This document shows positions 569-37,726 of a stretch of 53,648 nt of DNA, one piece after another. How positions within the stretch are numbered: position 1 is the stretch's first letter; the number at the start of each line of letters is the position of its first letter. The stretch spans positions 1-53,648 of the forward strand of contig JAHYJA010000003.1 in assembly GCA_019429325.1 (NCBI GenBank). The letters run 5' to 3'. The notes under the pieces are model-generated. The model saw nothing but the letters and a program-made list of their open reading frames with translations, ran no database searches and had not been told where the DNA came from. The DNA is from Bacteroidales bacterium. Lineage in GTDB: Bacteria; Bacteroidota; Bacteroidia; Bacteroidales; VadinHA17. The translations under genes and the position numbers were made by a program.

Positions 569-3406
569 ATGATTAAAAGACTTCTGTTTTTCGCCGTTTT
601 CTTCACCCAGGTCCTGCACGCTCAGCAGCTTACATGGCCTGAGGTTACCCGCGATTGCAGACCCTGGACACGCTGGTGGTGGCCGGGCAATATTGTCAAT
701 CCTTCAGATATTACACACAACCTGGAGATTTACAAAAACGCGGGTCTTGGGGGTGTAGAGATCACACCCATTTACGGGGTGAAGGGACAGGAAGAGAAGT
801 TCATCGATTTCCTTTCGCCGGAATGGATGAAGATGTTCACTCACACCCTTGAAGAGAGCGAGCGGCTCGATATGGGGGTTGACCTTGCCAATGCCTCGGG
901 ATGGCCATTCGGAGGTCCATGGGTCGGCCCGGAAGATGCCTGCAGGAACATCAATTATAAAACGTATTCCCTGACAGCAGGGAGTAAGCTTGATGAGAGG
1001 ATCGTATTTATCCAGCAACCTCTTGTCAGACCAGTTGGAGTAAGGCCGGATATCTCAAAGCTGATTGATCCGATCAGCAGGAATAAAAATCTTCAGCTCT
1101 ACGCACTCGATCAGATACGATTTGAGAAACCTGTTCCTTTACAGGCACTCATTGCCTATTCAGATGGAGGCGGGTTTGCTGACCTGACCGGCAGGGTCAC
1201 TCCTGCCGGTGAGCTTGACTGGACCGCACCTCCCGGGAAATGGACCCTGTGGGCTCTTTTCCAGGGATGGCACGGCAAGATGGTAGAAAGGGCCGGTCCG
1301 GGCGGAGAAGGTGACGTGATTGATCATTTCTCCGGTCAGGCAATCGATAATTACCTGAATCATTTTGATAAGTCACTCCTGGGTTACGACCTGAGTACCC
1401 TCAGGAGCTGGTTTAACGACTCGTATGAGGTTGATGATGCCTCGGGCCAGGCAGACTGGACAAATGATCTGTTCTATGAGTTCTATATCAGGAGAGGCTA
1501 TGACCTTGGAGAACACCTGCCGGCATTGTTTCAGAAAGATTATCCGGAAAAGAACGCAAGGATACTCTCGGATTACCGGCAGACTGTTTCTGATCTGTTG
1601 CTTGAAAAGTTCACTTCTCACTGGAGCAGGTGGGCAAACAGGCAGGGCAAGCTGACACGCAATCAGGCACACGGTTCTCCGGGTAACATCCTCGACCTTT
1701 ACGCGGCATCGGATATTCCTGAAGCCGAAGGAAATGAAATAACAAGGTTCAAATTCGCCTCTTCCGCATCGAATGTTGTCGGAAAACAATATACTTCATG
1801 CGAGGCGGCAACCTGGCTGAATGAACACTTCATATCAACCCTTTCGGATGTCAGAAAGAGTGCTGATCTCTTTTTCCTGGGAGGGATCAACCACCTCTTC
1901 TACCACGGTACCTGTTATTCGCCACCGGACGAACCCTGGCCCGGATTCCTGTTCTATGCCGCCGTGGAGTTCACACCTGCCAACCCGTTCTGGAATGACT
2001 TCCACACCCTTAATGAGTATATTACACGAGTTCAGTCTTTTCTTCAGCGAGGGAGGCCCGACAATGAAATACTGCTTTATTTCCCCATTTTTGACAAATA
2101 CGCTGATTACGGAAGAGAAATGCTTGAGCATTTCGACGGAATCAGTCCGTTTTACGATGGAACAGCTTTTAAAACTGCTGCCTTAACCATGCTCGAAAAA
2201 GGATATGCCTTTGACTTTATTTCTGACCTCCAGATAACAAACACCGAAGCTGAGAACGGCCTGCTTTTTACAGAAGGGAACACTTACAAAACACTCATTA
2301 TTCCGGAATGTAAATATATTCCCGTCGAAACATTCGCGCATATCCTGAAACTGGCGAGCGACGGAGCTACAATTATATTTTACGGTGATCTCCCTGCAAG
2401 TGTTGCGGGATTTGGCCTCCTTGATGAGAAGAGCAGGGCATTTGAACGCATGAAAGCCTCTGTAAATCTCAATGCTGCAAATAATGCAGATGCATCGGGA
2501 ATAACCTTTGGAAAAGGCAGATTATTAAACGGCAGTAATCTCGAAGGAGTGCTTTCTCTGGCAGGCATAAAGCGGGAATCAATGGCAGACTATGATTTAG
2601 GGTTTGTGAGAAGGGAGTCCAGTACCGGCTTTACATGGTTCATAGTCAATAAAGGAGACAAACAATTCGAAGGCTGGCTCCCCCTGAACAAAAACGTCCG
2701 GTCTGCAGGGATCTTCAATCCGATGACCGGGAATTGCGGAACAGCAGATATCAGGGACGCCGGAAAAGAATCCGCCGAAATATTTATGAGCCTGGCTCAG
2801 GGAGAATCGGTAATAATCGAATCATATCATAATCCTCCTAAAGGTAACCGGTACCCGTTTTTTGTTGCCCTCTCCCCTCCTATTGAAGTCAAAGGCAACT
2901 GGAAGGTTGATTTCAATACAGGCGGACCGGTACTTCCGCCTTCAGTTGAGGTTGCGGAACTAAAATCATGGACAGAGTTCGGGGAAGATGAATACAGGGA
3001 TTACTCGGGAAGCGCCGGATACTTAATCAATTTTACAAGGCCAAAGACCAGGGCAGATACCTGGATGCTTGATATGGGTGATGTAAAAGAGAGTGCAACG
3101 GTAACCCTGAACGGTATGAAGATTGCCTCACTTATTGGTCCGTATTTCCGCTTGATCATTAACAAAAAGCAATTAAAGAAAAACAATACTCTTGAAATTG
3201 TGGTGTCAAACCTCATGGCCAACCGTATAGCATTTATGGACCGTAATAATTTAGAGTGGAAGAAGTTCTATAACATCAATATGGCTGCGAGGTTAAAGCA
3301 GAACAGTAAAAACGGACTGTTTGATGCTTCAGCCTGGGAGCCGATGGAGTCGGGGCTGCTGGGGCCGGTGACTTTGACACCGGTTGTGGAGAGAGGTGAG
3401 AGGTGA
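569..3406 (+). CDS. GH106-family alpha-L-rhamnosidase-like glycoside hydrolase, secreted
   Basis: 945 aa; signal peptide; RPWTRWWWPG, GLGGVEITPIYG, GWPFGGPW, FNDSYEV and C-terminal SGLLGPV. Confidence 0.85.
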   Translation: MIKRLLFFAVFFTQVLHAQQLTWPEVTRDCRPWTRWWWPGNIVNPSDITHNLEIYKNAGLGGVEITPIYGVKGQEEKFIDFLSPEWMKMFTHTLEESERLDMGVDLANASGWPFGGPWVGPEDACRNINYKTYSLTAGSKLDERIVFIQQPLVRPVGVRPDISKLIDPISRNKNLQLYALDQIRFEKPVPLQALIAYSDGGGFADLTGRVTPAGELDWTAPPGKWTLWALFQGWHGKMVERAGPGGEGDVIDHFSGQAIDNYLNHFDKSLLGYDLSTLRSWFNDSYEVDDASGQADWTNDLFYEFYIRRGYDLGEHLPALFQKDYPEKNARILSDYRQTVSDLLLEKFTSHWSRWANRQGKLTRNQAHGSPGNILDLYAASDIPEAEGNEITRFKFASSASNVVGKQYTSCEAATWLNEHFISTLSDVRKSADLFFLGGINHLFYHGTCYSPPDEPWPGFLFYAAVEFTPANPFWNDFHTLNEYITRVQSFLQRGRPDNEILLYFPIFDKYADYGREMLEHFDGISPFYDGTAFKTAALTMLEKGYAFDFISDLQITNTEAENGLLFTEGNTYKTLIIPECKYIPVETFAHILKLASDGATIIFYGDLPASVAGFGLLDEKSRAFERMKASVNLNAANNADASGITFGKGRLLNGSNLEGVLSLAGIKRESMADYDLGFVRRESSTGFTWFIVNKGDKQFEGWLPLNKNVRSAGIFNPMTGNCGTADIRDAGKESAEIFMSLAQGESVIIESYHNPPKGNRYPFFVALSPPIEVKGNWKVDFNTGGPVLPPSVEVAELKSWTEFGEDEYRDYSGSAGYLINFTRPKTRADTWMLDMGDVKESATVTLNGMKIASLIGPYFRLIINKKQLKKNNTLEIVVSNLMANRIAFMDRNNLEWKKFYNINMAARLKQNSKNGLFDASAWEPMESGLLGPVTLTPVVERGER

Positions 3407-3502
3407 GAGGTGAGAGGTGAGCGGGGAGCGCAAAGCGGGGGGCGCAGGGCTCCAGCCTACGCTAAAGCTTCGGCTGGCAAGCAGGGCGCAGAGCACAGGG
3501 CA
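3391..3502 (+). repeat. Composite short tandem repeat tract: (GAGAGGT)x4, degenerate AGGGCGC/AGAGCAC heptamers and a nested 26-bp hairpin
   Basis: GAGAGGT at 3391, 3398, 3405 and 3412; hairpin ccagcc-tacgctaaagcttc-ggctgg at 3452-3477. Confidence 0.9.
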
Positions 3503-3564
3503 AAAACAATGAGTGAACACTTGAATATCCTTGATTAACAATAGACTCAGTAACAATAATTAAA

Positions 3565-4731
3565 ATGAAACAGAACGGTATTACGCGAAGAATTTTTATA
3601 AGAAATTCTGCTGTTGCTACAGCCGGGCTGGTTCTTGCCGGATGCCCCGCTGCATCTGCAACTGCCAGCGGAAACGGCAACAAGCTTCCCCGCTGGAAAG
3701 GTTTCAACCTTCTTGACTTCTTCTCCCCCAATCCTCCGCGGAGTCCGGGAGGAGGCAACAGGACAACCGAAGATGACCTGAAATGGATGGCTGACTGGGG
3801 ATTCGACTTCGTCAGGTTACCAATGGCCTATCCACGTTATCTCAGTTTCGACCGTACAAGGGATATAACAAAAGAGGAGGTTTACAGCTTTGATGAGAAG
3901 GTCCTGGAAGAGGTTGATAACCTCATTTTGATGGCTCATAAATACAAGCTCCACGTGAGCCTCAATCTTCACCGCGGACCGGGATATTGCATCAATGCCG
4001 GCTTCCATGAACCTTATAACCTCTGGAAAGACAAGGAAGCACAGGATGCTTTCAATGCTCACTGGACAATGTGGGCTGAACGTTACAAATCAATTTCTTC
4101 CGACAAGCTCAGCTTTGACCTTCTGAACGAGCCTGCATACATTGAAGATATGAACGATCAGTACGCAAAGAAAGGTCCTGTACCCGGCGACATTTACAGG
4201 AAGGTTGCCGAAGGCGCCTCGGATGCAATTTGGGCAGTCAATAAGGAAAGACTCATCGTTGCAGATGGCAACGGAGGAGGTAACAGCGTTATCCCGGAGA
4301 TTGAAGACCTGGGTCTTGCACAGAGCTGTCGCGGATATCACCCGGGACTGGTCTCTCACTTCCAGGCTTCATGGGTTTGGAAAGATCCCTCACAGGCTCC
4401 CGTACCGGTATGGCCGGGAATTATCGACGACAAATATTATGGAAGGGAATCGCTTGAGGAATTCTATAAGCCATGGATTGAGCTGAAAGAGAGAGGTGTT
4501 GGCGTTCATTGCGGTGAGTGCGGGTGCTACAATAAAACGCCCCATAACGTTTTCCTTGCCTGGTTTGGCGATGTGATAGATATCCTCACAAATGCAGGAA
4601 TAGGTTATGCTCTCTGGAATTTCAGGGGCGATTTCGGTATCCTCGACTCACGTCGCACAGATATCGAATACACCGACTGGTATGGCCATAAGCTCGACAG
4701 CAAACTGCTGGAACTATTGAGAAGATACTAA
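3565..4731 (+). CDS. GH5 (cellulase-family) glycoside hydrolase with Tat signal
   Basis: TRRIFIRN twin-arginine leader; WGFDFVRLP, LNLH, acid/base LLNEP, nucleophile GECG, WNFRG. Confidence 0.85.
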   Translation: MKQNGITRRIFIRNSAVATAGLVLAGCPAASATASGNGNKLPRWKGFNLLDFFSPNPPRSPGGGNRTTEDDLKWMADWGFDFVRLPMAYPRYLSFDRTRDITKEEVYSFDEKVLEEVDNLILMAHKYKLHVSLNLHRGPGYCINAGFHEPYNLWKDKEAQDAFNAHWTMWAERYKSISSDKLSFDLLNEPAYIEDMNDQYAKKGPVPGDIYRKVAEGASDAIWAVNKERLIVADGNGGGNSVIPEIEDLGLAQSCRGYHPGLVSHFQASWVWKDPSQAPVPVWPGIIDDKYYGRESLEEFYKPWIELKERGVGVHCGECGCYNKTPHNVFLAWFGDVIDILTNAGIGYALWNFRGDFGILDSRRTDIEYTDWYGHKLDSKLLELLRRY

Positions 4732-4757
4732 ATGGTATGGAGGCTCAGGGCAAGACT

Positions 4758-4868
4758 GTCTTGCAGGTCATGCAAGTCGTGCAAGTCATGCAAGTCGTGC
4801 AAAATTCCGATTACCGATTACTGATTACTGACTACCAGCTCTTCCCGTCTTCGGTCTTCGGTCTTCTT
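4758..4868. repeat. Composite tandem repeat tract between convergent genes: (GTCnTGCAR)x5, GATTACY-type heptamer x4, GTCTTCG-type heptamer x~3
   Basis: Nonamers at 4758-4802; gattacc gattact gattact gactacc at 4809-4836; cttcccgtcttcggtcttcggtcttc at 4840-4866. Confidence 0.9.
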
Positions 4869-4889
4869 CAAGATAGTGGCAGGGTGTGA

Positions 4890-6746
4890 CTATTTGATCT
4901 TATATACTTCAGAGCCGGCAAGCAGGAAACAACCCAGACCAAAATCCTCGAAATTGGGGACATTATCATATCCAACCGGCTGGCTGTCTTTGGGCTCCTT
5001 GCCTGTGCCCTGAACATAACCAAGAAAGCCGTTCGGATGCACACAGTCGTTTACCAGGCCGTTCCATGCTTTAATAACAACAGGCATGTATTTCTTCTTA
5101 TTCAGCAAGCCATTATTGATCCCCCATGCCATGCCGTAAGTGAACAGTGCCGTTCCGGTAAGCTCTTTACCTCCGAAGTGATCCGGATCGTGAAGGCTCA
5201 CGTTCCAGAAGCCGTCGAATCTCTGGCAGGCAACCAGCGCTTCTGCCATCTCCCTGAAGGTGGTCAGGAATTCGTTCCTGTGCGGACTGTTCTCCGGCAA
5301 AAAATCCAGAGTCCTGACAAATGACGCAAACACCCATCCGTTTCCCCGTGACCAGTAGCAGTTCTTGCCATTGGGTTCCTTGTATGGGGGAACAAAATCC
5401 CTGTCACGCCACCAGAGGTGCTCATCCGGGTTATACAGTCCGTTAGTTCCGTGCCTGGTTTTTGTGAACATGTACATCTCATGCATCCGGTCAAAGTATT
5501 TGTCATCGCTGTAGATTGTTCCAAGCCTGGCAAAAACCGGCATCGCCATGTGAAGGAGATCTATCCAGCTCCAGTCATCAATCTTGCCGGTGGCCATCAT
5601 ATTGTCGATGCAAGCCTTGATATCCCTTATCCTTTCTTCCTTTGAAGGATCCATAAGGTAAAGGTCGATGTAGGTCTGGCCGCAGCACTGATCATCGCCG
5701 TTGCGGGTGGTTATGCCGTTGCGCAGTCCCCACTTGTGATACTCCCCCCACCGTACTGCATAGTCGAGATACGAGGGGTCAGGTTTAAGCCCGTAGAGAG
5801 CCATTAATCCTTCATAATATGTACCGCGGGTCCAGATATTGCTTGGCCGCTCACGCTCGGTGATAATTGTTTTTCCGACGTCAGGCCATTTATCCATAAA
5901 ATATTTGTTCGCCAGAATCATGGCCGTTACAGTTTTTTCCTTCGAAACCAGTTGTGAAGGAAAACGGTTACGGGCATTTCTCAACAGCAGATCTGTGAGG
6001 TTAACGGCTGCCTGCCTGTTCTGGAAGCTCTCCGGAAGCAGATCGTGATCAATATACTCGTTATAAATCCATGGATCACCAACAGCAAAAACATACCCAT
6101 TTCCATATTTTGCCTCGGCCATCAGCACTTTACCGTCCCTGGAGAGAACCGCCCTGGCAGGCCCCGAAATTGCAATATCTGATATCTCCTTCATATATAT
6201 TTTTGAAACTCCTGCAAAAAGAGGATGTTCCGGAAGGTTTGTAATGGCTCCCATCTCCCATTCCCTGCCTGTAACCGGATTAAGGGTAACATGATTAAAC
6301 CTCATGCCGAATTTCGCCATAAGCTTATTGAGATTTGTGAATTCGCAATTGGGGGCATCATTGGCAAGAACCGCGAGTACTCCTCCTTTTTTAACCCATC
6401 CGGCAATTGCCCTGATATCATCGGGCCCTATATAATTAGGTGAATTTGATTCGGTTGTGGTATCAGGATCAACTATTATGTAAACATCCAGGTTCTTCAA
6501 CACTGAAGCATATGGTTTTTCAATGGTTTCAATCGCTGAGCCCCGCGAAGTGAATATCTCACCCCACCTGGAATAACCGCTCCATTCGGTATCGGTCCAT
6601 AAATAATGGAATGCCTGACCGGTTTTAGCATGTGTTTCGCGGTTGAACCAGTTATCGAGCCCGACAACAGGCTGTGACAGCAGATTCTGTATATTAAGCA
6701 GGAAAACAACTGACAACAACGTGAACCTGTAACAACATTTCTTCAT
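4890..6746 (-). CDS. DUF4350-like (GATase-like fold) domain fused to a GH105/GH88 glycoside hydrolase
   Basis: Signal peptide; N-half VGLDNWFNRE..YIIVDPDT..AVGDPWIYNEY; C-half RPSNIWTRGTYYEG, WSWID, YWSRGNGWV, GYVQGTG. Confidence 0.8.
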   Translation of the reverse strand: MKKCCYRFTLLSVVFLLNIQNLLSQPVVGLDNWFNRETHAKTGQAFHYLWTDTEWSGYSRWGEIFTSRGSAIETIEKPYASVLKNLDVYIIVDPDTTTESNSPNYIGPDDIRAIAGWVKKGGVLAVLANDAPNCEFTNLNKLMAKFGMRFNHVTLNPVTGREWEMGAITNLPEHPLFAGVSKIYMKEISDIAISGPARAVLSRDGKVLMAEAKYGNGYVFAVGDPWIYNEYIDHDLLPESFQNRQAAVNLTDLLLRNARNRFPSQLVSKEKTVTAMILANKYFMDKWPDVGKTIITERERPSNIWTRGTYYEGLMALYGLKPDPSYLDYAVRWGEYHKWGLRNGITTRNGDDQCCGQTYIDLYLMDPSKEERIRDIKACIDNMMATGKIDDWSWIDLLHMAMPVFARLGTIYSDDKYFDRMHEMYMFTKTRHGTNGLYNPDEHLWWRDRDFVPPYKEPNGKNCYWSRGNGWVFASFVRTLDFLPENSPHRNEFLTTFREMAEALVACQRFDGFWNVSLHDPDHFGGKELTGTALFTYGMAWGINNGLLNKKKYMPVVIKAWNGLVNDCVHPNGFLGYVQGTGKEPKDSQPVGYDNVPNFEDFGLGCFLLAGSEVYKIK

Positions 6747-6959
6747 TTTGGGATTTTTATAATATTATTAAACCAAAAATAGGAAACATTACTGATGTAT
6801 CAAATTTTCCGTCCGAATTCAGTACCTTATCACCGGATGAAACCTTCATGTTACAAAAACACAAAACAGCATGAAAATAATTTTCAATCATGAAGGTTCC
6901 ACACGAATCACTTAATTTACAACAATATACTAACATTATTTTCATGTGAAATGATTAAT

Positions 6960-6967
6960 TATCTTTG
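6960..6967 (+). promoter_or_regulatory. Bacteroidota sigma-A -7 element (TATCTTTG)
   Basis: Matches TAnnTTTG in an AT-rich intergenic region upstream of the GH43 remnant and DUF1080 genes. Confidence 0.5.
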
Positions 6968-7013
6968 CAATGATAACACCACTTTTCCGCTTTGCAGGAT
7001 AAGGGAAGGACTT

Positions 7014-7245
7014 TGCGGGATCTCCCCCGGAGGAAGGGAAAATGAATGTAAGTTGTGAAATATGTTAATGAGCCCCCTCTCCCGCTGTGCGGGATCTCCC
7101 CCGGAGGAAGGGAAAATGAATGTAAGTTGTGAAATATGTTAATGAGCCCCCTCTCCCGCTGTGCGGGATCTCCCCCGGAGGGGGAGAAAATACTGGAAAG
7201 AATTAGTCTTATTTTCCCCCTGCCAGGGGGAAAAAGAAAGGGGGT
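7014..7245. repeat. 74-bp tandem repeat (2 full copies plus a partial third) built from REP-like GC hairpins
   Basis: Identical units start at 7014, 7088 and 7162; hairpins tcccgc-tgt-gcggga, tctccccc-gga-gggggaga and ttttccccct-gcc-agggggaaaa (7212-7234). Confidence 0.9.
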
Positions 7246-7276
7246 GTTTAATTTAGTACCATAAATAATTAAAACC

Positions 7277-7585
7277 ATGATAAACAGTTACTTCAAAACA
7301 ACCCTGACCATACTCTTCCTTCTTTCAACAACGGAATTCTACAGCCAGGAAATAGTCAATAATTCTATCAGACCCGGCGAGGTATGGCCCGACACCGATG
7401 GAAATCACATTAATGCGCATGGTGGTGGTATAGTGTTTCATGATGGTGTTTACTACTGGTTTGGTGAAGCAAGGCTTCCGGTGGAATGGGAGACAGGGAG
7501 CAGGGCGACGAAGTTCCGCAAGAGCGGAAAAGGGAGCCCGGTGATCAGATGGCATCCCGAATGGAACCCTCATACATACAGGTAA
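7277..7585 (+). pseudogene. GH43 (subfamily 24-like) remnant: N- and C-termini joined after an internal deletion
   Basis: Signal peptide and PGEVWPDTDGNHINAHGGG..YYWFGE (GH43 N-terminus), then directly LPVEWE..PVIRWHPEW (resembles the GH43 C-terminus); only 102 aa. Confidence 0.75.
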
Positions 7586-7632
7586 AAACTATTTAAGTAA
7601 TTTGTACCATTATATAACCTTATCAGAAACAC

Positions 7633-8982
7633 ATGAAAAACCCGGTCTTCATTTTCGCATTTTCTGTCATGCTCATCCTCAACGAATGCAGCAGTGAGAA
7701 GCAGTGGCAATATCTCGTAAAGGATGATCTCAGCCACTGGGAACAACTAAACGGTACAGCTCCCTTTGAACTGATCGATGGGGTGGTTGTCGGTACGACG
7801 GTACTTGCTTCGCCCAACTCCTTTCTATGCACCAAAGAGAATTACGGAGATTTTATCCTGGAATTTGACACATGGTTCGATCCTCAGATGAACTCGGGAG
7901 TACAGATAAGAAGCGAAAGCAGGGCTGATTATCAGAATGGCCGCGTGCACGGTTATCAGGTTGAGATGGATCCTTCCGAACGAGCCTGGTCGGGGGGTAT
8001 CTATGATGAAGCCAGAAGAGGCTGGCTCTATACCCTCGACAATAATCCGGAAGGCAAAAAAGCCCTCAGGGTCGGAGAGTGGAATTACTACAGGGTTGAA
8101 GCCATCGGCAACTCAATAAGAACCTGGATCAACGGGATCCCTTGCGCCGACCTGATTGACGATCTGACCCCGTCGGGGTTCATCGCCCTTCAGGTACATG
8201 GGATCGGAAGAGACTCAACCAGGGTTGGTTTGCAGGTAAAGTGGAAGAATATCAGGATAATAACTGAGAAACTGGAGAAATATACCACTCCATACCAGCC
8301 TGTGATACCTCAATATAGTTTTCTCAATAATGAGCTTACAGAAAGAGAAAAGAAAGAGGGCTGGAAGCTGTTATTTGACGGATCAACACCTTTCGGGTGG
8401 AAGAGTGCAGCCACAGGGGTTTTCCCGGCAGTTGGATGGGAAATAAAAGATGGGACACTGACATTCAATCCTGCTACAAAAGGAAAAGGTGGCGGGGACA
8501 TTGTCACAGTCGATAAATTCAGAAATTTTGAACTTGTTGTCGATTTCAACTACTCCACGGGTGCAAACAGCGGAATAAAATATTTTGTCGATACCGAATC
8601 GGATGGAGGTTCACGGGCATCTATAGGCTGTGAATATCAAATACTTGACGACCGGCTCAATCCTGATGCCCAGGCAGGTATAGCCGGCAACAGGACACTG
8701 GCCGGATTGTATGACCTCATTGCCCCCGGGAATAAAAGGGACAACGGACCAAACCAGTGGAACAGGGCTATAATTATAGTAAACGGACCCAAAGTCCAGC
8801 ACTGGCTGAACGGCCAGCTGACTGTGGAATACGAAAGGGGCACTCCCGGGTGGAGGGAGCTTGTTGCAGGCAGTAAATTCAAAAACTTCCCGGGATTCGG
8901 AGAAGCTGAAGAGGGAAGAATACTTCTGCAGGATCATGGAAACCTTGTATCGTTCAAGAACATAAAGATAAGGGAGATGTAG
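7633..8982 (+). CDS. Tandem DUF1080 (3-keto-disaccharide hydrolase family) protein
   Basis: Two repeats carrying NSGVQIRS/NSGIKYF, GYQVE/EYQILD, WN and G-IALQVH/GRILLQDHG motifs; N-terminal signal. Confidence 0.85.
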   Translation: MKNPVFIFAFSVMLILNECSSEKQWQYLVKDDLSHWEQLNGTAPFELIDGVVVGTTVLASPNSFLCTKENYGDFILEFDTWFDPQMNSGVQIRSESRADYQNGRVHGYQVEMDPSERAWSGGIYDEARRGWLYTLDNNPEGKKALRVGEWNYYRVEAIGNSIRTWINGIPCADLIDDLTPSGFIALQVHGIGRDSTRVGLQVKWKNIRIITEKLEKYTTPYQPVIPQYSFLNNELTEREKKEGWKLLFDGSTPFGWKSAATGVFPAVGWEIKDGTLTFNPATKGKGGGDIVTVDKFRNFELVVDFNYSTGANSGIKYFVDTESDGGSRASIGCEYQILDDRLNPDAQAGIAGNRTLAGLYDLIAPGNKRDNGPNQWNRAIIIVNGPKVQHWLNGQLTVEYERGTPGWRELVAGSKFKNFPGFGEAEEGRILLQDHGNLVSFKNIKIREM

Positions 8983-9060
8983 GTGCGGCGGTACGACGGT
9001 ACGACGGTACGACGGTACGACGGTACGGCGTAGAGGCGCAGGGGCGCAGCGGCGCAGCGG
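8982..9060 (+). repeat. Octamer tandem repeats (CGGTACGA)x4-5 then (GGCGYAGn)x4, directly after the stop codon
   Basis: CGGTACGA at 8989, 8997, 9005 and 9013, variant at 9021; ggcgtaga ggcgcagg ggcgcagc ggcgcagc at 9027-9058. Confidence 0.9.
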
Positions 9061-9068
9061 AATCAAAT

Positions 9069-9168
9069 GGTATGAACCCCAGAGCAAGCTCTGGACTCAA
9101 AAAACGGTGCAAGCACCGAGGAATTATACCTATTTTTCGCGTCCGCCGAAGCTTTACGCGAAGGCGGA
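9069..9168. repeat. REP/MITE-like hairpin cluster: two GCAAGC-capped hairpins plus a copy of the 26-bp hairpin element
   Basis: ccagagc-aa-gctctgg at 9079-9094; cggtgc-aa-gcaccg at 9105-9118; tccgcc-gaagctttacgcgaa-ggcgga at 9142-9168. Confidence 0.7.
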
Positions 9169-9186
9169 TTAAAGGGAAATTTTGAT

Positions 9187-9194
9187 TACCTTTG
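9187..9194 (+). promoter_or_regulatory. Sigma-A -7 element (TACCTTTG)
   Basis: Consensus TAnnTTTG about 45 bp upstream of ATG 9239. Confidence 0.6.
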
Positions 9195-9238
9195 AAAGGA
9201 TAAGTTATTCAGTGGTAACTGTTAAAAATTCTCAGGCT

Positions 9239-9649
9239 ATGAAAAGAATTGCGCTGTTTGTCACAATATCGTGCTGCCTGGTGTTATCATCATGCAGTAA
9301 GGACAAGGAATCTGAAAAATTTAAGTTCCTGACAACACCAACATGGACAACTGAACAGCTTCTGGTAAACGGTGTAAGCGCCGAAGGCCCGGGGGAACTG
9401 CTTGAAGGGTTCAAAGGGGATGCCAGGTTCAATAAAGATGGTACCGGAAATTTCGGAAGTTATTCAGGAACCTGGAGGTTCAGTTCTGATGAATCACAAC
9501 TCATTATTCAGACTCCCGATGTTCCGCTTCCCATCATAACAGATATTATACAGCTGACTGCTTCAAAACTTGAAGTTACAACTGTATTTCCCAACCCGGC
9601 CGATCAGACAAATCCTTACAACATCCGAATGATATTCAAGGCGAAGTGA
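9239..9649 (+). CDS. Lipoprotein, lipocalin-like beta-barrel
   Basis: Start moved to ATG 9239; MKRIALF..LSSC lipobox; F-x-x-DGTG and GTWRF pattern; stop overlaps the next ATG. Confidence 0.7.
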   Translation: MKRIALFVTISCCLVLSSCSKDKESEKFKFLTTPTWTTEQLLVNGVSAEGPGELLEGFKGDARFNKDGTGNFGSYSGTWRFSSDESQLIIQTPDVPLPIITDIIQLTASKLEVTTVFPNPADQTNPYNIRMIFKAK

Positions 9650-11898
9650 TGCGTTTTGCCCTTACTGCTTTTCTGTTGCTCTTGTACTTTACTACCGACG
9701 GTTCTGCCATCGCAGGTACAATATGGGGTAAAGTATATGACAATGAGACCAGGCAACCACTTGCAGGTGTCTATGTAATATGGGGAAGGAACCTTGGTAC
9801 AACCACCGGGGATGATGGCAGTTATGTAATAGCACCAGACTCGGGAAGAGTAAATATCACATTCCAGTTCATCGGATACGAAACTGTTACGAAGAGCGTT
9901 TTCCTGCGGCCAGACGAAGCTATTGAGCTCAATGTGGGGATGGATATGAAAATCAGCGAGATCGATCAGATTGTCATAAGCGCCAACAGAACCGAACAGA
10001 GAATTGCGGAACTGACAGTATCGATGGATGTCATTAAGTCTTCTTTCCTTTCGGAAAATCATATCACCGATGCTCAGGAACTAATCAATAAAACCCCTGG
10101 GATCGAAGTCATTGACGGACAAGCTTCAGTGAGAGGTGGCAGCGGCTTCAGTTACGGTGCGGGAAGCAGGGTGCTTGCACTGATAGACGGTTTACCGATG
10201 GTTTCAGCGGATGCAGGAAACATAAAATGGCAATTCCTTCCTCTTGAAAACCTGTCACAGATAGAGATAATAAAAGGTGCCTCATCGGTACTTTACGGAT
10301 CATCTGCGCTTAACGGAATTATTAATTTCCGGTCATCCGATGCCTCAAACAAGCCTGTCACCCAAATCTTTACAGAGGTCGGGGTTTTCGGCAAACCCAG
10401 GAACAGGGACTGGGTGTGGTGGGATACACCAAGGCTCTTCACAAGCACATCATTTTCACATATCAGGAAACTCGACAATACTGACGTAAGCATTGGCACC
10501 AACCTCCTGATTGATGAAGGCTACAGGCGGCTGAACGGAGAAAAGCTCGGACGGCTCAGTTTAAGGGTGAAACATTTTAGCAAAAAGAAAGAAGGCCTCA
10601 CATACGGGATCAGTCTGAATTCAGGATACACGAAAAAAAAGGATTTTGTGCTCTGGGAGGATGCAGCGTATGGAGCCTTGAAGCAAAGCAGCCTGACCGC
10701 CATCGAGATGCATGGCGATTTTCTTGCTCTCGATCCTTTCATCTCCCTGAAGAAGAGGGATCGTTACAGGCATGATCTTCGGATGCGTATCCAGTCATCA
10801 GGAAACAGGTTCCCCGGGAGTGAGAAAAACAACAGCGACGCTTTTTCGGTCTTTACCGAGTACCAGGGATGGTTCAGAATCAATGAGATGGTGAATATCA
10901 CAGCAGGTTTATCGGAGAATTATATCAATGTAACCTCCAATTTTTTCGGCGATCACTCCGGCCTCAACATAGCCGGATTCACTCAGCTGGAAGTTACCCC
11001 GGTAAAGCGCCTGAAGGCTGTGGCGGGAGTAAGGGTTGAACAGTACTCCCTCGACGGGGATAAAGACAAGATAACCCCGGTGATCAGAACAGGTATTAAC
11101 TACCAGGTTGCAGATTATACGTTTCTAAGAGCATCTTATGGCCAGGGATACAGGTATCCATCGGTGGCAGAGAAACATGCCTCCACCACACTCGGCTCGG
11201 TAATGATATTCCCAAATCCCAACCTGATGCCTGAATCGGGATGGAACGCTGAACTGGGCATCAAACAGGGAATCAGCATAGGTACACTGGCCGGGCAATT
11301 CGATTTCTCTGCATTCCACTCCCGGAACAGCGATCTGATCGAATATGTTTTCAACCTTTACCAGGACCCTGCAACCGGGATCTATAATCTTGGATTCATT
11401 GCAACAAATGTTGAACAATCAAGGATCTACGGGTACGAAACTGAATTTATCGTTACCCGCACAACGGAGAGGTTCAGTACAATTGTCAGCGGAGGCTATA
11501 CATTCATCTATCCTGTTGAGTATAATAAATCATCACAGCAGGCTACCGGTGCATACCTGAAGTACAGAAGAAAACACTCGGGAAAAATCAGTATCCTGAC
11601 AAAATGGAACAAACTTGAATCCGGGTTAAGCATTTATGCCAAATCAAAAATCCTTAACATTGACGACGTATTCCTCAATACGCTTACAAGAGAAGTGATC
11701 CTCCCGGGATTTTACGATTACTGGATGGCCAACAACAAAGGTTATATCACAATTGATTGCAGTGTGGGGTACAGGATAAGTGAACCCCTTACCCTTTCGG
11801 TTGTCGTTAAAAACTTAACAAACACTGAGTATATGGGCCGCCCAGGTGATATCCAGCCGCACAGGAACTTCAGCCTGAGATTGACAGGAAGGTTCTGA
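9646..11898 (+). CDS. TonB-dependent receptor (non-SusC type)
   Basis: Signal peptide, CarboxypepD_reg-like N-domain (GKVYD..FIGYET), plug (IEIIKGASSVLYGSSALNGIIN), C-terminal Phe. Confidence 0.9.
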   Translation: MMRFALTAFLLLLYFTTDGSAIAGTIWGKVYDNETRQPLAGVYVIWGRNLGTTTGDDGSYVIAPDSGRVNITFQFIGYETVTKSVFLRPDEAIELNVGMDMKISEIDQIVISANRTEQRIAELTVSMDVIKSSFLSENHITDAQELINKTPGIEVIDGQASVRGGSGFSYGAGSRVLALIDGLPMVSADAGNIKWQFLPLENLSQIEIIKGASSVLYGSSALNGIINFRSSDASNKPVTQIFTEVGVFGKPRNRDWVWWDTPRLFTSTSFSHIRKLDNTDVSIGTNLLIDEGYRRLNGEKLGRLSLRVKHFSKKKEGLTYGISLNSGYTKKKDFVLWEDAAYGALKQSSLTAIEMHGDFLALDPFISLKKRDRYRHDLRMRIQSSGNRFPGSEKNNSDAFSVFTEYQGWFRINEMVNITAGLSENYINVTSNFFGDHSGLNIAGFTQLEVTPVKRLKAVAGVRVEQYSLDGDKDKITPVIRTGINYQVADYTFLRASYGQGYRYPSVAEKHASTTLGSVMIFPNPNLMPESGWNAELGIKQGISIGTLAGQFDFSAFHSRNSDLIEYVFNLYQDPATGIYNLGFIATNVEQSRIYGYETEFIVTRTTERFSTIVSGGYTFIYPVEYNKSSQQATGAYLKYRRKHSGKISILTKWNKLESGLSIYAKSKILNIDDVFLNTLTREVILPGFYDYWMANNKGYITIDCSVGYRISEPLTLSVVVKNLTNTEYMGRPGDIQPHRNFSLRLTGRF

Positions 11899-11918
11899 AA
11901 AAATAATACATCAAATAA

Positions 11919-14900
11919 ATGAAGACCATGAGACCTAATTTAACCTCGCATCTGATAAATCTGTCCCTGTTAATCGTGGTTCTGATCTCCTGCAGAAAAA
12001 CAGAACCCGGGGAAGTGAGAATAAATAACTTCGCCTCCCTTTCAGCACAATTCAGAGAGCCTTCAAGGGAGTACACAACATCCCCGTTCTTTGTCTGGAA
12101 TGCGGAGATTACAACAGACGAGATCGACCGTTTCATGAATGATTTTAAAAATGCCGGCAGCAGACAGGTATTCGTACATCCCCGGCCCGGACTTATTACC
12201 GAATATCTTTCAGAGAGATGGTTCGAGCTTTTCCGTTTTACTGTCGCGAAAGGCAAGGAGCTTGGTATGGATGTATGGATCTATGACGAGAATTCATATC
12301 CGAGCGGTTTTGCCGGGGGACATGTGCCTGCTGAGATGCCGGAATCCTGGAATCAGGGGCAGGGGCTCAGGATGACGGCATTTGAAATTTTACCCGATAC
12401 AGCAGAAAAATATTTCCTCTGCCTGAGGGAAACGGACGGGAAGTACGTTGATATCACATCAATAGTTAACGAAGAAAAGGGTAAAACAGGAAAATACTTC
12501 CTGTTCTCAAAAAGCTATCATGGGAAATCAGACTGGTACGGAGGTTTTTCATATGTAGATCTTCTTCACCCGGGCGTTACACAGAAATTTATCGATATCA
12601 CAATGGCCGGTTACGAAAAATATGCCGGTGAGGATTTCGGCAAGACAATCCCCGGGGTCTTCACCGACGAACCCCAGATCAATTCACCGGGAGGTATCCG
12701 ATGGACCCCTGACCTGTTTGACATCTTTTCCGAAAAATGGGGTTATGATCTCAAACTTCATCTCCCGCTATTGTATGAGGATACAGGTGACTTCAAGCGG
12801 ATAAGGCATAATTACACTCAGACCCTGCTGCAGCTTTTTATCGACAGATGGGCCAAACCCTGGTATCAGTACTGTGAGGAGAAAGGGCTTAAGTTCACAG
12901 GCCACTACTGGGAGCATGAGTGGCCCAATATGCGTCCCGGAGGAGATAATATGGCAATGTACGCATGGCATCATGTTCCGGGAATAGACATGTTATTCAA
13001 TCAATGGAATGACTCATCCGTCAGGGCACAGTTCGGAAATGTCAGGTCGGTTAAGGAGCTTGCCAGTGCGGCGAACCAGACAGGGCGCCAGAGGACCCTC
13101 AGCGAAACATACGGTGGCTCTGGGTGGGAACTCACCCTTGCAGAAATGAAAAGGAACGGCGACTGGGAATACGCGCTCGGAGTGAATCTGATGAACCAGC
13201 ACCTTACTTACTTCACTCTCGCAGGAGCCAGGAAAAACGATTACCCTCCTTCATTCGATTATCATCAGCCATGGTGGAACTCCTATAAATATATCAACGA
13301 TCACTATGCAAGATTATCACTTGCCCTCTCTTCAGGCAGGCAGGTCAATGACATACTGGTGATTGAGCCTACAACCACCGCCTGGCTATATGACTCATAT
13401 GCAAAGAGAAGCCAGAAAGTAACTGAAACGGGGCAGGCATTTCAGAATTTTATAACCAGGCTCGAAAAAAGCCAGGTTGAATACGACCTCGGATCAGAAA
13501 ATATCATAAAGGATCTGGGATCTGTCAGCAGAGGGAAATTCATCGTCGGACAATCCGGCTATTCAAGAGTAGTGATCCCGCCACTTACAGAAAACCTCGA
13601 CCTGGCCACTTACCAGCTTCTGAGGAAATTTGCCTCCGCGGGCGGAACCATTATTGCCTTTTCGGTGCCGACACTGGTGGAGGGCGCGATAAACGACGAA
13701 CTAATGGAGTTCTTCGATACCAATTCCAAAAGTATCATCTTCGGTGATGAGCTTTCGGATCATTTTATCCGTGAAAATCTCAGCGACCCCTCATTGGAGT
13801 TCACCGATACTGAAGGGGGCTCTCTATACCATCACCGGAGAATTCTTAGCGACGGTCAGGTACTCTTCCTGGTAAACTCAAGTCTTGAGCAGGAGCTGTC
13901 CGGTTCCGTCAGAATTGCAGGAAAAGGAGCAGTGGAATTGAATACACTTACCGGAGAGGTAAATGGTTATCCGTACCAGCCAGAAGGTAAAAGGATTAAC
14001 ATTGAATATTCCCTGCCTCCTGCAGGAAGCCTGCTTCTGTTTATCCCGTCCGCAAGGCAGAACGACCCGGACATACCGCTTAAACCCGTGGACCTTAAGC
14101 CATTGCCCGGTGATTCTCCGCTGACGGTGGCAAAGGACAGGGAGAATGTGCTGATGATTGATTTCTGTGATATCCGGATCGGCGGTGAAGTGATCAGGGA
14201 TCTTCATACATGGCAGGCTGCCGACAGGATTTTCAGACATTACGGGTTTACAAACGGCAACCCCTGGAATACCTCTGTTCAGTACAGGACCCGGACCATT
14301 GACCGCGACACCTTCAGCATTAAATCAGGTTTTACCGCTTCATATTATTTCGAAGTGAAAGAGGTAACTGATTTCTCATCATTCCGCGCGGTCGTGGAAC
14401 GGCCTTATCTCTGGGAAGTAAAAATAAACGGGAAAGAGATCAGGGCTGCGGAGGGCGAGTGGTGGCTCGACAGATCTTTCGGAGTTTTTGATATCGGTGG
14501 ATACGTAAAAGCAGGAAGGAATGTCTTAACGATAACCGCCTCACCCATGAGAATCCATGCTGAAGTGGAACCGGTATTTATTCTCGGGGATTTTTCAATA
14601 GAACCGGCCGAAAAAGGATGGACGATCACCAAAAACAATAATGAACTTACGACAGGTAGCTGGAAAGAACAGGGTCTGCCATTTTATTCGTGGGGAGTGA
14701 CCTACAGCAAGGTGTTCAATATTGATAACCCGGAGGGAACTTTTGAAATCGGATTGGGTGAATGGGAAGGTACTGTAGCAGAGGTTTTTGTAAACGATCA
14801 GCAGGCCGGTATCATAGCATTCCCTCCTTATCGCACCCCTGTTACAGCGTTAATAAAGCCCGGATCCAACAAGGTTGACGTGAGAGTTACCGGAAGCCTT

Positions 14901-15053: not shown

Positions 15054-15089
15054 GTCGTGCAGGTCGTGCAGGTCGTGCAGGTCGTGCAG
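15054..15089 (+). repeat. (GTCGTGCAG)x4 perfect nonamer repeat beginning at the base after the TAA stop
   Basis: Read directly; same unit family as 4758-4802. Confidence 0.95.
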
Positions 15090-17740: not shown

Positions 17741-17866
17741 TCCGTAGCTTTATTTATTCTCCGGTCATTGCGAGTCCCGTGTAACGGGACGAAGCAATCC
17801 GTGGTTTTATTTATTCTCCGGTCATTGCGAGTCCCGCTAAGCGGGACGAAGCAATCCGTTGCTTTT
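17741..17866. repeat. 57-bp tandem duplication of a GTCATTGCGAG..GAAGCAATC palindromic (REP/RPE-like) element
   Basis: Cores start at 17764 and 17821; inner hairpins gtcccgt-gta-acgggac and gtcccgc-taa-gcgggac. Confidence 0.9.
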
Positions 17867-23691: not shown

Positions 23692-23701
23692 AACTGATAA
23701 G

Positions 23702-25462
23702 ATGATATTTGGAAAATCATTCCGGAACAATCTGTTTCTTTATTATTCAATTGTATTTCTGTTATTTACAGTACTTATCCTGCTTTATCTTTACAAGAGA
23801 GAAAAGGATTATCGCATTGAAGCTCTCAATGATGAACTTAACAATATTACCCTTCTGACAGATAATTATATAAAAGTAAACAGCATTGATAAAAGCAGGG
23901 ATTACCGGAAATTGGATTCACTGATCAGCCTGATCCCTCAGTCTAACCTCCGGATTACTATCGTAAGTCTTTCCGGTGATGTCCTTTTCGACAGTTTCGT
24001 GCATGAATGGACCAAAATGGAAAACCACCTGGAAAGACCGGAAATAACTGAGTCACTCAAAGCTCCGTTCGGAACTGCCATCAGGGGTTCCGAAACAACA
24101 GGCCAGGCATATTATTACTATGCCCGGAACCTTGAAAGATATTTTATTAGGTCAGCCCTCGTTTATGATGTCACCATCGCAAACTTCCTGAAAGCAAAAA
24201 AATTCTTTCTCCTGGTGATATTCCTGTCCTTTATTTCGATTTGGCTTATTATGTTACTGATTACCAACAAGCTGAGCGAATCAATCACTAAACTTAAGGA
24301 TTTTGCATTAAGGGTGGGGAATAATGAACCATTTGATTTCAGGACGAAGTTTCCGAAAAACGAGATAGGAATAATTGGTGAAGAGATTATGACAATCTAT
24401 AATAAACTCCTTCAGACCAAGAATGACCTTGCCATTGAAAAAGAAAAGTTCTTCAATCATCTTGATGCTCTTAATGAAGGAGTGGCATTTTTCTCCCAGG
24501 ACAAGAAAAAGATCTTCAATAACGATCATTTTGTCCATTTCCTGAATATGATTTCGGGTGATCTGAGGATCTTCACTTCAGATTTCAGTGAGATTACCGA
24601 ATTATCACAGGTTACTGATTTTGTTGACAAACATTCAGAATCGGAGATTTCCGTAACGGATCTGCCAAAAATGGAATACCAGGTAAATAAGGACGGCAGA
24701 TTTTTCAGGGTTCAGTGTGTTATTTTCAAGGACAGGAGCTTTGAAGTTATTATCAGCGACATAACCAAAATAGGGAAGAACAAGCTGATTAAGCAGCAAA
24801 TGACTTCAAATATATCTCACGAGCTGAAAACCCCTGTTTCGTCGGTTAAAGGGTATATCGAAACCCTTCTCAACGATCCTGCCATTGAGCCTGAGAAACA
24901 AAAATATTTTCTTGAAAAGGCGCTGGCGCAGGCAGACAGGCTGACAGGGCTGATCAACGATATTTCTGAACTTAACAGGATAGAAGAGGCTGCTGCATCA
25001 TTCAACATTGAAAAGGTAAAGATCAAAAAGATAATAAGGGAAGTGAGGGATAATTTCAAATCGGCGATTGAAGCGAGGAAGATGAAGGTTGAAATTGAGG
25101 TGGGCAGCGAGGTTACCGTAAAAGGGAACAAGTCGCTCATACTATCCGTCTTCCAGAACCTGACTGAAAATGCCATCAATTATGCCGGTGATGATTCAAC
25201 AATCAGAGTGCTGGTTTATAATGAGGATAAGAAATTCTACCACTTCTCCTTCTCGGACGATGGTGTCGGAATCCCCGAGGAACATTTAAACAGGGTATTT
25301 GAAAGGTTCTACAGGATTGATTCAGGACGTTCGAGGAAAAGCGGTGGTACCGGTCTCGGCCTGGCAATTGTTAAAAATGCTATCCTGCTTCATAGAGGAG
25401 AAATACTTGTTAGGAATAAGACAAGTGGCGGGACTGAGTTCCTGTTTTCCCTACCGAAATAA
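23702..25462 (+). CDS. phoR: PhoR-like sensor histidine kinase
   Basis: Two TM helices; [10 protein letters not shown] sensor motif; [18 protein letters not shown]; N, G1, F and G2 boxes ([19 protein letters not shown]). Confidence 0.85.
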
Positions 25463-25466
25463 AAGC

Positions 25467-25504
25467 CTCCGTGGCCCTCTGTGACATCCTTCGTGCCCTC
25501 TGAG
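25467..25504 (+). repeat. Four spaced CTYYGWG heptamers just after the phoR stop
   Basis: CTCCGTG 25467, CTCTGTG 25477, CTTCGTG 25489, CTCTGAG 25498. Confidence 0.65.
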
Positions 25505-27270: not shown

Positions 27271-27352
27271 GGGTGCTGGTTACTGCCCGCCGTCGCCAAG
27301 GCTTTGGCGGGTAAAAGTTGCTGGTTGACTGATTACTGATTACTGATTACCC
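27271..27352. repeat. GGTTRCT/GATTACT heptamer tract interrupted by the 26-bp hairpin element
   Basis: gggtgct ggttact g [cccgcc-gtcgccaaggcttt-ggcggg 27286-27311] ..gttgct ggttgact gattact gattact gattacc. Confidence 0.85.
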
Positions 27353-32768: not shown

Positions 32769-32862
32769 CTTTGTGAACCTTAGTGTAATCCTTTGAGTCC
32801 CTTTGTGGTTAAGGTTTTTTTACCACTAAGTGTCACAAAGGAAAACTCAAAGTAACACAAAG
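32769..32862. repeat. 94-bp symmetric array: four CTTWGWG heptamers facing four inverted copies
   Basis: Left units at 32769, 32779, 32791, 32801; right inverted units at 32824, 32834, 32846, 32856; 10/12/10 spacing in both arms. Confidence 0.85.
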
Positions 32863-32931
32863 GTAAACAATAGGTTAGTAATAAATATGAATAGTAAAGG
32901 TTAGAAAAAAAGTGACCTGCTATTAATAATT

Positions 32932-33013
32932 GGGTTGGAAGTCGGAAGACTGATGCAAGAATAGTTTTCGACTCTCCCCTTCTCCCCCTCTCCCCTTCTT
33001 TCCTTCCGTCTTC
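32932..33013. repeat. GGAAGAC-type heptamers and (YTCTCCCC)x3 octamers
   Basis: ggttggaagtcggaagactg; ctctcccc ttctcccc ctctcccc at 32972-32995; ttccgtcttc. Confidence 0.75.
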
Positions 33014-37257: not shown

Positions 37258-37413
37258 TTATCTGAGGATTTTTTAACAATAATCAAATATTAAACAAAAT
37301 ATTGCCCGGGTTGTTTAATTTTAAACTCCGGCAAGTATTAACTTTGGGAAGTCCCGTCGGTTAAAACACCGGATAATTGTAAAGGTACAATTTGTAAAAG
37401 AAGAATAGATCTT

Positions 37414-37638
37414 ATGTTCATAAAACTCATAATATTAAGCGCATTAATGGTCCTCCTTGCAGTTGCCGGCCTGGGGATCAGAATCTTACTCAGACCTAAG
37501 GGCAGATTCCCGGAGACACATGTCGGCAAAAATGCGGAGATGAGAAAGCTGGGCATATCATGTGCCAGGAACACGGATGTGGGATGCGTCACCCCGGATG
37601 GTATGCCAGGGTGTGCGTGCGGGAGGAGTGAGTTGTAA
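37414..37638 (+). CDS. Small single-TM protein with Cys-rich tail (possible NqrM analogue)
   Basis: 74 aa; N-terminal TM; GRFPETHVGKN..MRKLGISC; Cys50/58/67/69; -7 box TAACTTTG at 37339. Confidence 0.75.
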   Translation: MFIKLIILSALMVLLAVAGLGIRILLRPKGRFPETHVGKNAEMRKLGISCARNTDVGCVTPDGMPGCACGRSEL

Positions 37639-37726
37639 TTGCGGATTGCGGATTGCGGATTGCGGATTTTGGCGATTGAAGTGAGGTATTCAGTAATCGG
37701 TAATCAGTAATCAGTTAGTCGGTAGT
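37638..37726 (+). repeat. (ATTGCGG)x4 from the stop codon, then RGTAATC heptamers
   Basis: 37638-37665; ggtattc agtaatc ggtaatc agtaatc at 37685-37712 (reverse complement of GATTACY). Confidence 0.9.

Follow-up and report, generated by a model that had tools for sequence, protein, structure and literature searches.

The tracts of short tandem repeats described here lie in the intergenic gaps of a 53,648-nucleotide stretch from a Bacteroidales bacterium (GenBank assembly GCA_019429325.1, contig JAHYJA010000003.1, positions 1 to 53,648 of the forward strand), which is referred to below as the window. The window corresponds to contig C143 in an assembly of 3.39 Mb (G000; 263 contigs, 46% G+C), and by its domain content it belongs to a Bacteroidota polysaccharide degrader. 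A preceding sequence-only reading, made without database searches, had described composite tracts of 7–9-nt units at gene 3' ends in this stretch and had proposed that an uncharacterised process writes or delivers them. The tracts represent, in this stretch, a population of elements built from 7–9-nt words that extends over the genome and the genus, and they apparently have no role for the genes beside them. On balance, they are best regarded as modular selfish repeat elements, placed where insertion was tolerated and reshaped by slippage.

Arrays in the window were called with Tandem Repeats Finder, and the sequences were also inspected directly. For the genome-wide survey, non-redundant arrays with a period of 6–10, at least 2.8 copies and at least 80% matches were retained. 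Genes were called with a home-made open reading frame (ORF) and codon-score caller, which returned 2752 genes (89.9% coding; 10.2% of the genome intergenic).

Repeat tracts and hairpins in the window

Positions 1–15053 are of the polysaccharide-utilisation type and encode two glycoside hydrolases (GH) of family GH88, two GH106-like enzymes, a GH5 enzyme, a 3-keto-disaccharide hydrolase and a TonB-dependent receptor; the metagenome locus L079 is syntenic with this part. Tracts were found, by Tandem Repeats Finder and by direct reading, in all eight gaps that the sequence-only reading had listed, the one near 25467 being real and degenerate. The first of them consists of GAGAGGT units (4.4 copies, 3391–3421, plus strand), which provide the stop codon of a GH106-like gene (569–3406), so that this ORF terminates within the array. 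A 14-nt unit (1.9 copies, 3420–3446, plus strand) follows directly, and behind it stands a hairpin resembling repetitive extragenic palindromic (REP) sequences, with a core of CCAGCC, a 14-nt loop and GGCTGG (3452–3477) and with CAGGGCN words on both sides as far as 3501. At the corresponding gene end, L079 carries a GTGAGWG-type array, which is degenerate in genome G001.

The convergent gap between the GH5 and GH88 genes is filled by a composite block of 158 bp (4732–4889, minus strand) with three arrays called by Tandem Repeats Finder, namely GTCATGCAA (5 copies, 4758–4802), CCGATTA (4.3 copies, 4807–4836) and GTCTTCG (2.9 copies, 4847–4866). Read on the minus strand, the order of the block is (AAGACCG)n, linker, (GTAATCR)n, linker, (TGCAYGACY)n, a 15-nt hairpin (4750–4764) and CCTGAGCC. 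Further downstream, a tract on the plus strand (8982–9060) begins at the stop codon of the gene at 7633–8982, the last base of this ORF being the first of the tract; it comprises CGGTACGA (4.9 copies, 8989–9027) followed by CGGCGCAG (4.4 copies, 9026–9060), and about 20 AGGCGYAG units occupy the matching site in L079. The second copy of the REP-like hairpin lies nearby in reverse orientation (9142–9168). Four copies of the nonamer GTCGTGCAG (15054–15089, plus strand) abut the stop codon of the gene at 11919–15053, which ends one base ahead of them.

Four degenerate CCTYYGWG words (25466–25504, plus strand; below the threshold of Tandem Repeats Finder) lie 3' of the stop codon of a histidine kinase gene, the ORF of which (23681–25462) ends four bases ahead of the tract; they are of the word type found in the downstream arm of the GxxExxY cassettes described below and stand here as a lone arm. 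The third hairpin copy (27286–27311, plus strand) is followed by a conserved linker and by ACTGATT units (3.3 copies, 27328–27350, plus strand). A pair of inverted arms of the GxxExxY-cassette type, without a gene, occupies 32769–32875 and includes a Tandem Repeats Finder array (32834–32875). It is built of a CCTTTGTG-type arm ending in GTGGTTAA (32805–32812), a T-rich spacer and a CACAAAGG-type arm; its RNA fold has z = −4.06, with none of 200 shuffles equally stable, and it closely matches C28:9647 over more than 130 bp, as read by eye from the alignment and not expressed as an identity value. The same divergent gap holds TCTCCCCT units (3.4 copies, 32973–32999, plus strand), a unit that is also found at the beginning of contig C1.

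The last tract starts on the final base of the stop codon of a 74-aa ORF (37414–37638), with ATTGCGG units (4.4 copies, 37638–37668, plus strand) separated by a 16-nt spacer from GGTAATC units (5.6 copies, 37685–37724, plus strand). The two arrays are quasi-complementary and form one hairpin (37638–37724; RNA fold z = −3.80, 0/200 shuffles equally stable). The 74-aa ORF itself (plus strand) has a hydrophobic N-terminus and a Cys-rich tail, lacks a Pfam match and lies convergent with apbE, beside the nqr operon.

As had been claimed, GATTACY recurs at 4807 and 27328 and, reversed, at 37685, and GTCNTGCAR recurs at 4758 and 15054. The recurrence of GTCTTCS at 32940/33005 is present but weak, with one or two copies only, and the AGGGMGC reported at 7495 forms no tract and lies inside ORF 7277–7585. 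Contact with a stop codon was seen in all five tracts for which it had been noted, the array overlapping the stop codon in two of them. The genes adjoining the tracts have no function in common.

The window also holds tandem repeats of longer unit. A 74-bp unit (2.3 copies, 100% identity, 7014–7181) lies in an 886-bp gap upstream of ORF 7277–7585, for which no Pfam match was obtained; L079 has about 1.5 kb across this interval. A 57-bp unit (2.2 copies, 17741–17867) carries in each copy a hairpin (GTCCCG, loop, CGGGAC) within CATTGCGA...GAAGCAATC, and hairpins resembling this type occur in the GH106/GH5 gap of G001, G003 and L076.

Vocabulary, mosaic blocks and cassettes across the genome

The whole assembly contains 419 arrays, among which period 7 is the commonest (253), followed by periods 8 (91) and 9 (45); 338 are intergenic, 65 coding and 16 lie across a boundary. 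Arrays make up 4.1% of the intergenic bases. Real intergenic DNA yielded 224, 80 and 33 arrays at periods 7, 8 and 9, respectively, as compared with 0–1 at periods 7–9 and 0–3 at any period in intergenic DNA simulated with Markov models of order 1, 3 and 5. The units of 346 intergenic arrays fell into 128 families, against about 296 for letter-shuffled units, and 20 families comprised at least five arrays (shuffled mean 0.48, maximum 3; 500 shuffles). Each of the eight largest families is spread over 8–19 contigs. Genome-wide calling and clustering thus placed the recurrence of the units far above that in shuffled or simulated intergenic DNA; with array counts above chance and a small vocabulary, the outcomes that the sequence-only reading had named as telling against it were not those obtained. 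The window contributes 7 of 260 tracts, where simple arithmetic from its length gives an expectation of about 4; the system is genome-wide rather than specific to the window.

Composite blocks of arrays and small hairpins recur with their order and linkers kept. The minus-strand order given above, from (AAGACCG)n to CCTGAGCC, is found in the window (4749–4866), twice on C106 and once on C188, the block at 4732–4889 being 86–87% identical to the two C106 copies over 122–125 bp; these two near-identical copies are neighbours on their contig (C106:89–475). A second mosaic variant with a unique core of about 45 nt occurs on C17, C120, C204, C210 and C182, the last of which also has module order and linkers in common with the first variant, and the 15-nt hairpin of the mosaic was located at 7 loci. 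After masking of the arrays, 106 of the 260 tracts still had at least 18 bp in common with another tract. The 26-nt hairpin and its flanks at 3391–3500 are common to 11 other tracts, and the hairpin and linker at 27286–27350 to 5.

The REP-like hairpin family of the window (3 copies) counts 16 strict-pattern copies in the genome, none of them coding, and 9 of the 16 have an array within 40 bp (background 8.7%). At L028 (G006:C26), a member of this family sits inside the heptamer array that forms the downstream arm of a four-helix-bundle cassette, which argues that these hairpins insert into arrays. Hairpin structure as a property of all tracts was rejected: self-complementarity above 30 shuffles was found for 29/260 tracts and for 26/260 array-free gaps.

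The genome contains seven four-helix-bundle genes of family TIGR02436 (PF05635; E = 4e-29, the tested PF05635 protein matching PDB 2GSC with E = 1e-9) and two GxxExxY (PF13366) genes, none of which is in the window. All nine lie between inverted short tandem words, roughly 0–80 bp from the start or stop, and the arm word varies from cassette to cassette. There are small cassettes in which a PF05635 or PF13366 gene is flanked on its two sides by arrays of a single word type in inverted orientation, and the suggestion of the sequence-only reading that such tracts flank these genes holds here and in the congeners. Among the congener loci, sampled at one per genome, 21/27 four-helix-bundle loci exceeded all 50 shuffles for inverted complementarity (4/27 for direct repeats), as did 21/25 GxxExxY loci. 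The neighbours of the cassettes, where called, are candidate protein-coding ORFs.

When 2344 genes were ranked by an inverted-flank score, cassette genes took ranks 1, 2, 3, 6 and 7. The other high-scoring genes were ordinary (peptidase M1, RNase HII, DUF3109, DUF4252, a DDE transposase and a ParE-like toxin) and were not retained as cassette cargo. Inverted array pairs on C169 and C204 were likewise rejected as cassettes; they enclose no family-sized ORF. Contig C169 carries an 800-bp non-coding repeat nest (C169:5300–6350, L146) with two tandem copies of a five-module mosaic. Behind these copies stand period-11 arms like those on either side of the four-helix-bundle gene of C206, here without a gene.

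The arms of GxxExxY cassettes are made of CACAAAG-, CACAGAG-, CGCAAAG- or CACGGAG-type words, and many of these loci have the outer termini TTAACCRC and GYGGTTAA. For the four-helix-bundle proteins, clades track the arm words, which are GTCNTGCAG nonamers, AAGACCG/GATGACG heptamers or CCCTGATC. Inside the clades, the words drift, yet both arms remain complementary. Mismatches between arms (41 of 61 cassettes passing a score filter) were G·U-compatible in 80 cases and of the A·C type in 73 (p = 0.63). Selection for a stem in the sense RNA was therefore rejected, and this strand symmetry points to a constraint at the level of DNA rather than an mRNA stem.

The tracts of the window are connected with these cassettes through their words. 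The four-helix-bundle cassette on C243 has as its arm word the nonamer seen at 15054 and 4758, and that at 15054 also builds the arms of L052, L053 and L057. Exact matches to congener cassette-flank words were obtained for 43 of the 346 intergenic arrays (7.1 expected, maximum 14), and for 192 of them when one mismatch was allowed (95 expected).

Gene-less arm derivatives exist as uniform multi-copy elements. One such derivative of GxxExxY arms is present in 15 intergenic copies of exactly 103 bp with the termini TAACCRC...GYGGTTA, together with two relatives of 101–102 bp and about ten that are partial or expanded. Most of 19 aligned copies and variants bear an outer inverted repeat, with which the element measures about 150 bp; the aligned flanks beyond it share no common duplication, near-identical empty sites being unavailable for comparison. 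Convergent gaps, which make up 15% of all gaps, hold 10 of 26 loci of this element. The pair of arms at window 32769–32875 belongs to its word family, and the only gene-carrying form related to it encodes a GxxExxY protein.

Alleles, placement and the origin of the tracts

Eighteen congeners, whose coding DNA is 70–76% identical to that of the window, carry same-word arrays at many non-orthologous places, as do two genomes of the same order that belong to other families. Arrays of (GTAATCR)3 were found in 26/401 Bacteroidota genomes and in 16/180 genera. Alignment of orthologous gaps, which the sequence-only reading had suggested, revealed empty, filled and gene-containing alleles, so that orthologous gene junctions differ in whether they hold an entire block or none. 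A relative with about 92% identity (contigs from two runs of two studies) has position 4709 joined to 4886, with 28 other letters replacing 176 bases, so that about 10 bp separate two stop codons where the window has its 158-bp block of three arrays. Both a gain and a precise loss fit this empty allele. The block is likewise absent from G015 and G011.

The cassette at the efflux-gene junction of C243 is also present in G040, G041, G015 and G033. At the same junction, G045, G038 and a second G041 locus have gene-less GxxExxY-type arms with intact termini, G005 has a half arm, G001 and G013 have hairpins or arrays, and G040b, G004 and G039 have 28–136 bp only, without tandem arrays. Between the GH106-like and GH5 genes, different fillers are seen in G001 and G003, and the gap is free of tandem arrays in G015 (39 bp) and G011 (112 bp). 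Just past the GH5 stop, arrays occur in 8 of 10 genomes (that of the window included), each of a different word, the remaining two being G015 and G011. Of 72 orthologues from metagenomes, 21 carry an array in the 200 bp that follow the GH5 stop, with 17 word families between them, and 15 of 69 have one before the GH5 start.

Arrays also alter their copy number and word variant in place. At the gene ends near 3391 and 8982, L079 (74–88% identical) has the same word types as the window, and after GH5 it has nonamers in degenerate form; the retention of word types implies that some arrays persist and change where they stand. Pure replication slippage, by which each tract would have grown in place from a chance duplication with a preference for 7-nt steps, is the classical explanation of long simple sequence repeats and would account for these orthologous pairs, in which the word type is kept while copy number and variants differ. 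The dominance of period 7 (253/419) and the prevalence of direct arrays with no inverted partner agree with it, and slippage of heptamers was proposed by Mrazek et al. in 2007 (as reported in PMC4679880). As the sole origin of the tracts it is nevertheless unlikely, since the vocabulary is small, its words recur in further species and families, the 103-bp copies are uniform in length, and near relatives differ by the presence or absence of an entire multi-array block. The conservation of module order, non-repeat linkers and hairpins between unlinked loci bears out the earlier judgement that independent slippage is inadequate.

A functional role in cis, whether as terminators, protectors of mRNA 3' ends, elements of translational control or binding sites for the four-helix-bundle proteins, would account for the position of many tracts at gene ends. 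Among gaps of at least 40 bp, arrays were found in 111/821 tandem, 38/169 convergent and 36/355 divergent ones. In tandem gaps, the tract was nearer the upstream stop in 80 cases and nearer the downstream start in 33, at a median distance of 13 bp from the stop and approximately 59 bp from the start. Tracts began within 5 bp past the stop in 42 of 113 cases (15.4 under uniform placement; maximum 25 in 2000 simulations), and 29 of 189 gene 3' ends facing a tract had their stop codon inside the array. When the last 35 bp before the downstream start were barred, 38.5 tracts were expected within this distance (maximum 50). Placement behind stops is therefore what remains if about 35 bp before the next start are off limits, as they would be if the ribosome-binding and promoter-proximal DNA has to remain intact, and targeting of stop codons as a mechanism of its own was rejected; the bias requires none. 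Of the bias that the sequence-only reading had asked about, the enrichment is thus real, while targeting is unsupported, tracts being present in divergent gaps as well.

The strand bias that was also to be checked turned out to be weak: the majority orientation of a word relative to the upstream gene was seen in 50/68 arrays, and a fixed orientation was rejected. Sense units contained a stop triplet in 51/159 cases and antisense units in 36/159 (counts given without a significance test), and a reading in which such words would serve to close all three reading frames was set aside. Further points in favour of a role in cis are the slightly purine-rich sense strands (G>C 75 vs 51, A>T 79 vs 50), the two window tracts that fold stably, the complementarity of arms that is kept while words change, the association of protein clades with arm words, and the translational role proposed for TAACTGA repeats by MacGregor in 2015 (excerpt of PMC4679880). 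Against it stand the junctions that are empty or filled with unrelated words in relatives, the adjoining genes without a common function, the arm mismatches without sense-strand bias (80 vs 73, p = 0.63), a placement that requires no targeting, and the window itself, in which no Rfam family was matched at the gathering score. We regard such a role as improbable, slightly more so than slippage.

The writing of repeats by an enzyme, in which a polymerase or reverse transcriptase would add templated words at DNA ends or nicks behind genes, is very improbable. The words are discrete and reused, arrays abut one another, and PF05635 proteins resemble Avd, the partner of retroelement reverse transcriptases (excerpt of PMC10053308), all of which would suit such a process. 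The window contains no candidate enzyme, as had been stated, and no candidate gene was found near the tracts. The sole reverse transcriptase match in the genome (C43:16038–17333; L001:5039–6334) combines RVT_1 with a GIIM (group II intron maturase) domain; it is of the group II intron type and was rejected as a repeat writer. This, together with the non-repeat linkers and hairpins shared by composite copies and the fixed length of the 103-bp element, speaks against the earlier suggestion of templated repeat synthesis. The alternative offered with it, mobile cassettes from which flanking repeats remain, agrees with the empty and filled alleles, the uniform gene-less elements and the half arms at orthologous junctions, as does delivery in pre-formed blocks.

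Other enzymes were considered with regard to mobility. Four clear Y1 (IS200-like) transposase genes (C168:426–926, C182:39898–40347, C14:4810–5340 and C36:15172–15684) are each flanked by hairpin-repeat arrays of their own, in the manner of REP sequences and REP-associated tyrosine transposases (RAYT); a fifth Y1 match is weak. None of the 16 copies of the window hairpin family lies within 600 bp of any of these five matches. The GxxExxY protein has a PD-(D/E)XK nuclease fold, an assignment also given in a table of PMC3424549, and would be the likeliest agent of mobility for the arms that flank its gene.

An artefact of assembly, to which the 263 contigs and the 38/526 contig ends within 60 bp of an array might point, has a negligible probability, the same kinds of tracts and cassettes being found in congeners of 5–10 contigs (G004, G018 and G003) and in contigs of many independent metagenomes. 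With contig ends so often beside arrays, the actual number of arrays is higher than that counted.

We thus return to modular selfish repeat elements as the favoured reading of the tracts. The elements would be copied to new intergenic sites as pre-formed DNA, with the arms working at the DNA level as terminal inverted repeats do and the cassette proteins, chiefly the nuclease-fold GxxExxY protein, taking part in mobility. Solo direct arrays may be decayed or half arms that were later enlarged by slippage; about 50 of the genus cassettes found were examined, which limits this claim of descent. Several observations weigh against such an account. The majority of tracts are plain direct arrays, no more self-complementary than the control gaps. 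For GTAATCR, AGAGCGT and GCTGGTT, which are among the commonest words, this assembly has no resident cassette with matching arms. Across 18 congeners, the number of four-helix-bundle genes showed no obvious tracking, by eye, with that of matching arrays. Orthologous arrays that persist with the same word type at 74–88% nucleotide identity also fit slow evolution in place, distances to start codons are approximate because of the home-made gene caller, and neither a target-site duplication nor a transposase or an excision product was identified.

More tentatively, and with clearly less confidence than for the tracts themselves, the cassettes might constitute an undescribed class of mobile element, whose derivatives and slippage-amplified half arms would have given rise to the heptamer and short tandem repeat families, namely long simple sequence repeats and short tandemly repeated repetitive (STRR) sequences, of Bacteroidota and perhaps also of cyanobacteria and further phyla, the words reflecting cassette lineages rather than mutational chance. 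Should the link hold, asking where these repeats come from would mean asking about a single class of mobile element and two small proteins, one of them related to Avd. Inverted-arm cassettes, a uniform gene-less derivative and mosaic blocks gained or lost whole make that question testable. In practical terms, the tracts break short-read assemblies, as the contig ends indicate, can provide the stop codons of genes, and may be confused with regulatory sites or CRISPR-like arrays.

Comparison with known repeat systems

Heptamer and similar repeats have been known for decades from scattered bacterial phyla, to our knowledge without an accepted origin. The STRR heptamers, which are specific families of heterocystous cyanobacteria, are an analogue of the present tracts in general type. 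Long simple sequence repeats with units of 5–11 nt were described by Mrazek, Guo and Shah in 2007 (via the excerpt of PMC4679880), and the arrays reported here fall within that definition, heptamers being commonest (253/419) and most arrays non-coding (338/419 intergenic). They differ from it in being tied to linkers, hairpins, cassette arms and gene-less palindromic elements. According to the same excerpt of PMC4679880, heptamer repeats are known in cyanobacteria, Beggiatoaceae and some Bacteroidetes, and the present arrays resemble those described there in their sporadic distribution over phyla, the mixing of heptamers in one gap and the shorter, repeat-free gaps of relatives. The window word compared with TAACTGA of the Beggiatoaceae differs from it by one base in any rotation. 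As far as the excerpt goes, the Beggiatoaceae repeats lie just upstream of start codons, whereas the arrays here lie mostly behind stop codons.

With REP sequences, bacterial interspersed mosaic elements (BIME) and the REP doublets known as REPINs, the tracts have in common short intergenic palindromic units, ordered mosaics and a concentration at gene 3' ends. REPINs are associated with RAYT transposases (Bertels and Rainey 2011, excerpt of PMC3116915). The main modules here are direct 7–9-nt tandem arrays and not palindromes, and the hairpin family of the window is a repeated intergenic palindromic unit without a cognate flanking Y1 (RAYT) gene.

Intervening sequences of 23S rRNA with PF05635 genes occur in Leptospira and Coxiella. 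In these rRNA insertions, ORFs of the same PF05635 family lie between inverted repeats (excerpts of PMC11270868 and PMC10053308; that of PMC11270868 records the proteins as encoded in rRNA insertions), and a PF05635 ORF within inverted repeats was found here in 7/7 cases and in 21/27 congener loci, none of them in the window. In contrast to the rRNA intervening sequences, the present cassettes lie between candidate protein-coding genes, their arms are made of clade-specific tandem words, and GxxExxY cassettes are built alike. PF05635 genes have also been reported as inserted between cas genes, in an account (PMC3936711) whose available excerpt does not mention repeats. No published link of TIGR02436/PF05635 or GxxExxY genes to tandem-repeat arms or solo arrays was found in the literature searched, which excluded most subscription journals and database family notes.

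Miniature inverted-repeat transposable elements (MITEs) and modular BOX-type elements form a further class for comparison. The 103-bp inner palindrome is MITE-like in being uniform, multi-copy, intergenic and non-coding, in its terminal inverted repeats and in having a gene-carrying relative. It departs from MITEs in that its arms are internally tandem-repetitive and no transposase of a known family was found with it, the relative encoding the 125-aa PD-(D/E)XK-fold protein instead. The arrays as such fit known classes of repeats; what is new here is that solo tracts, mosaic blocks and the 103-bp element are proposed to be connected with one another and with the cassettes.

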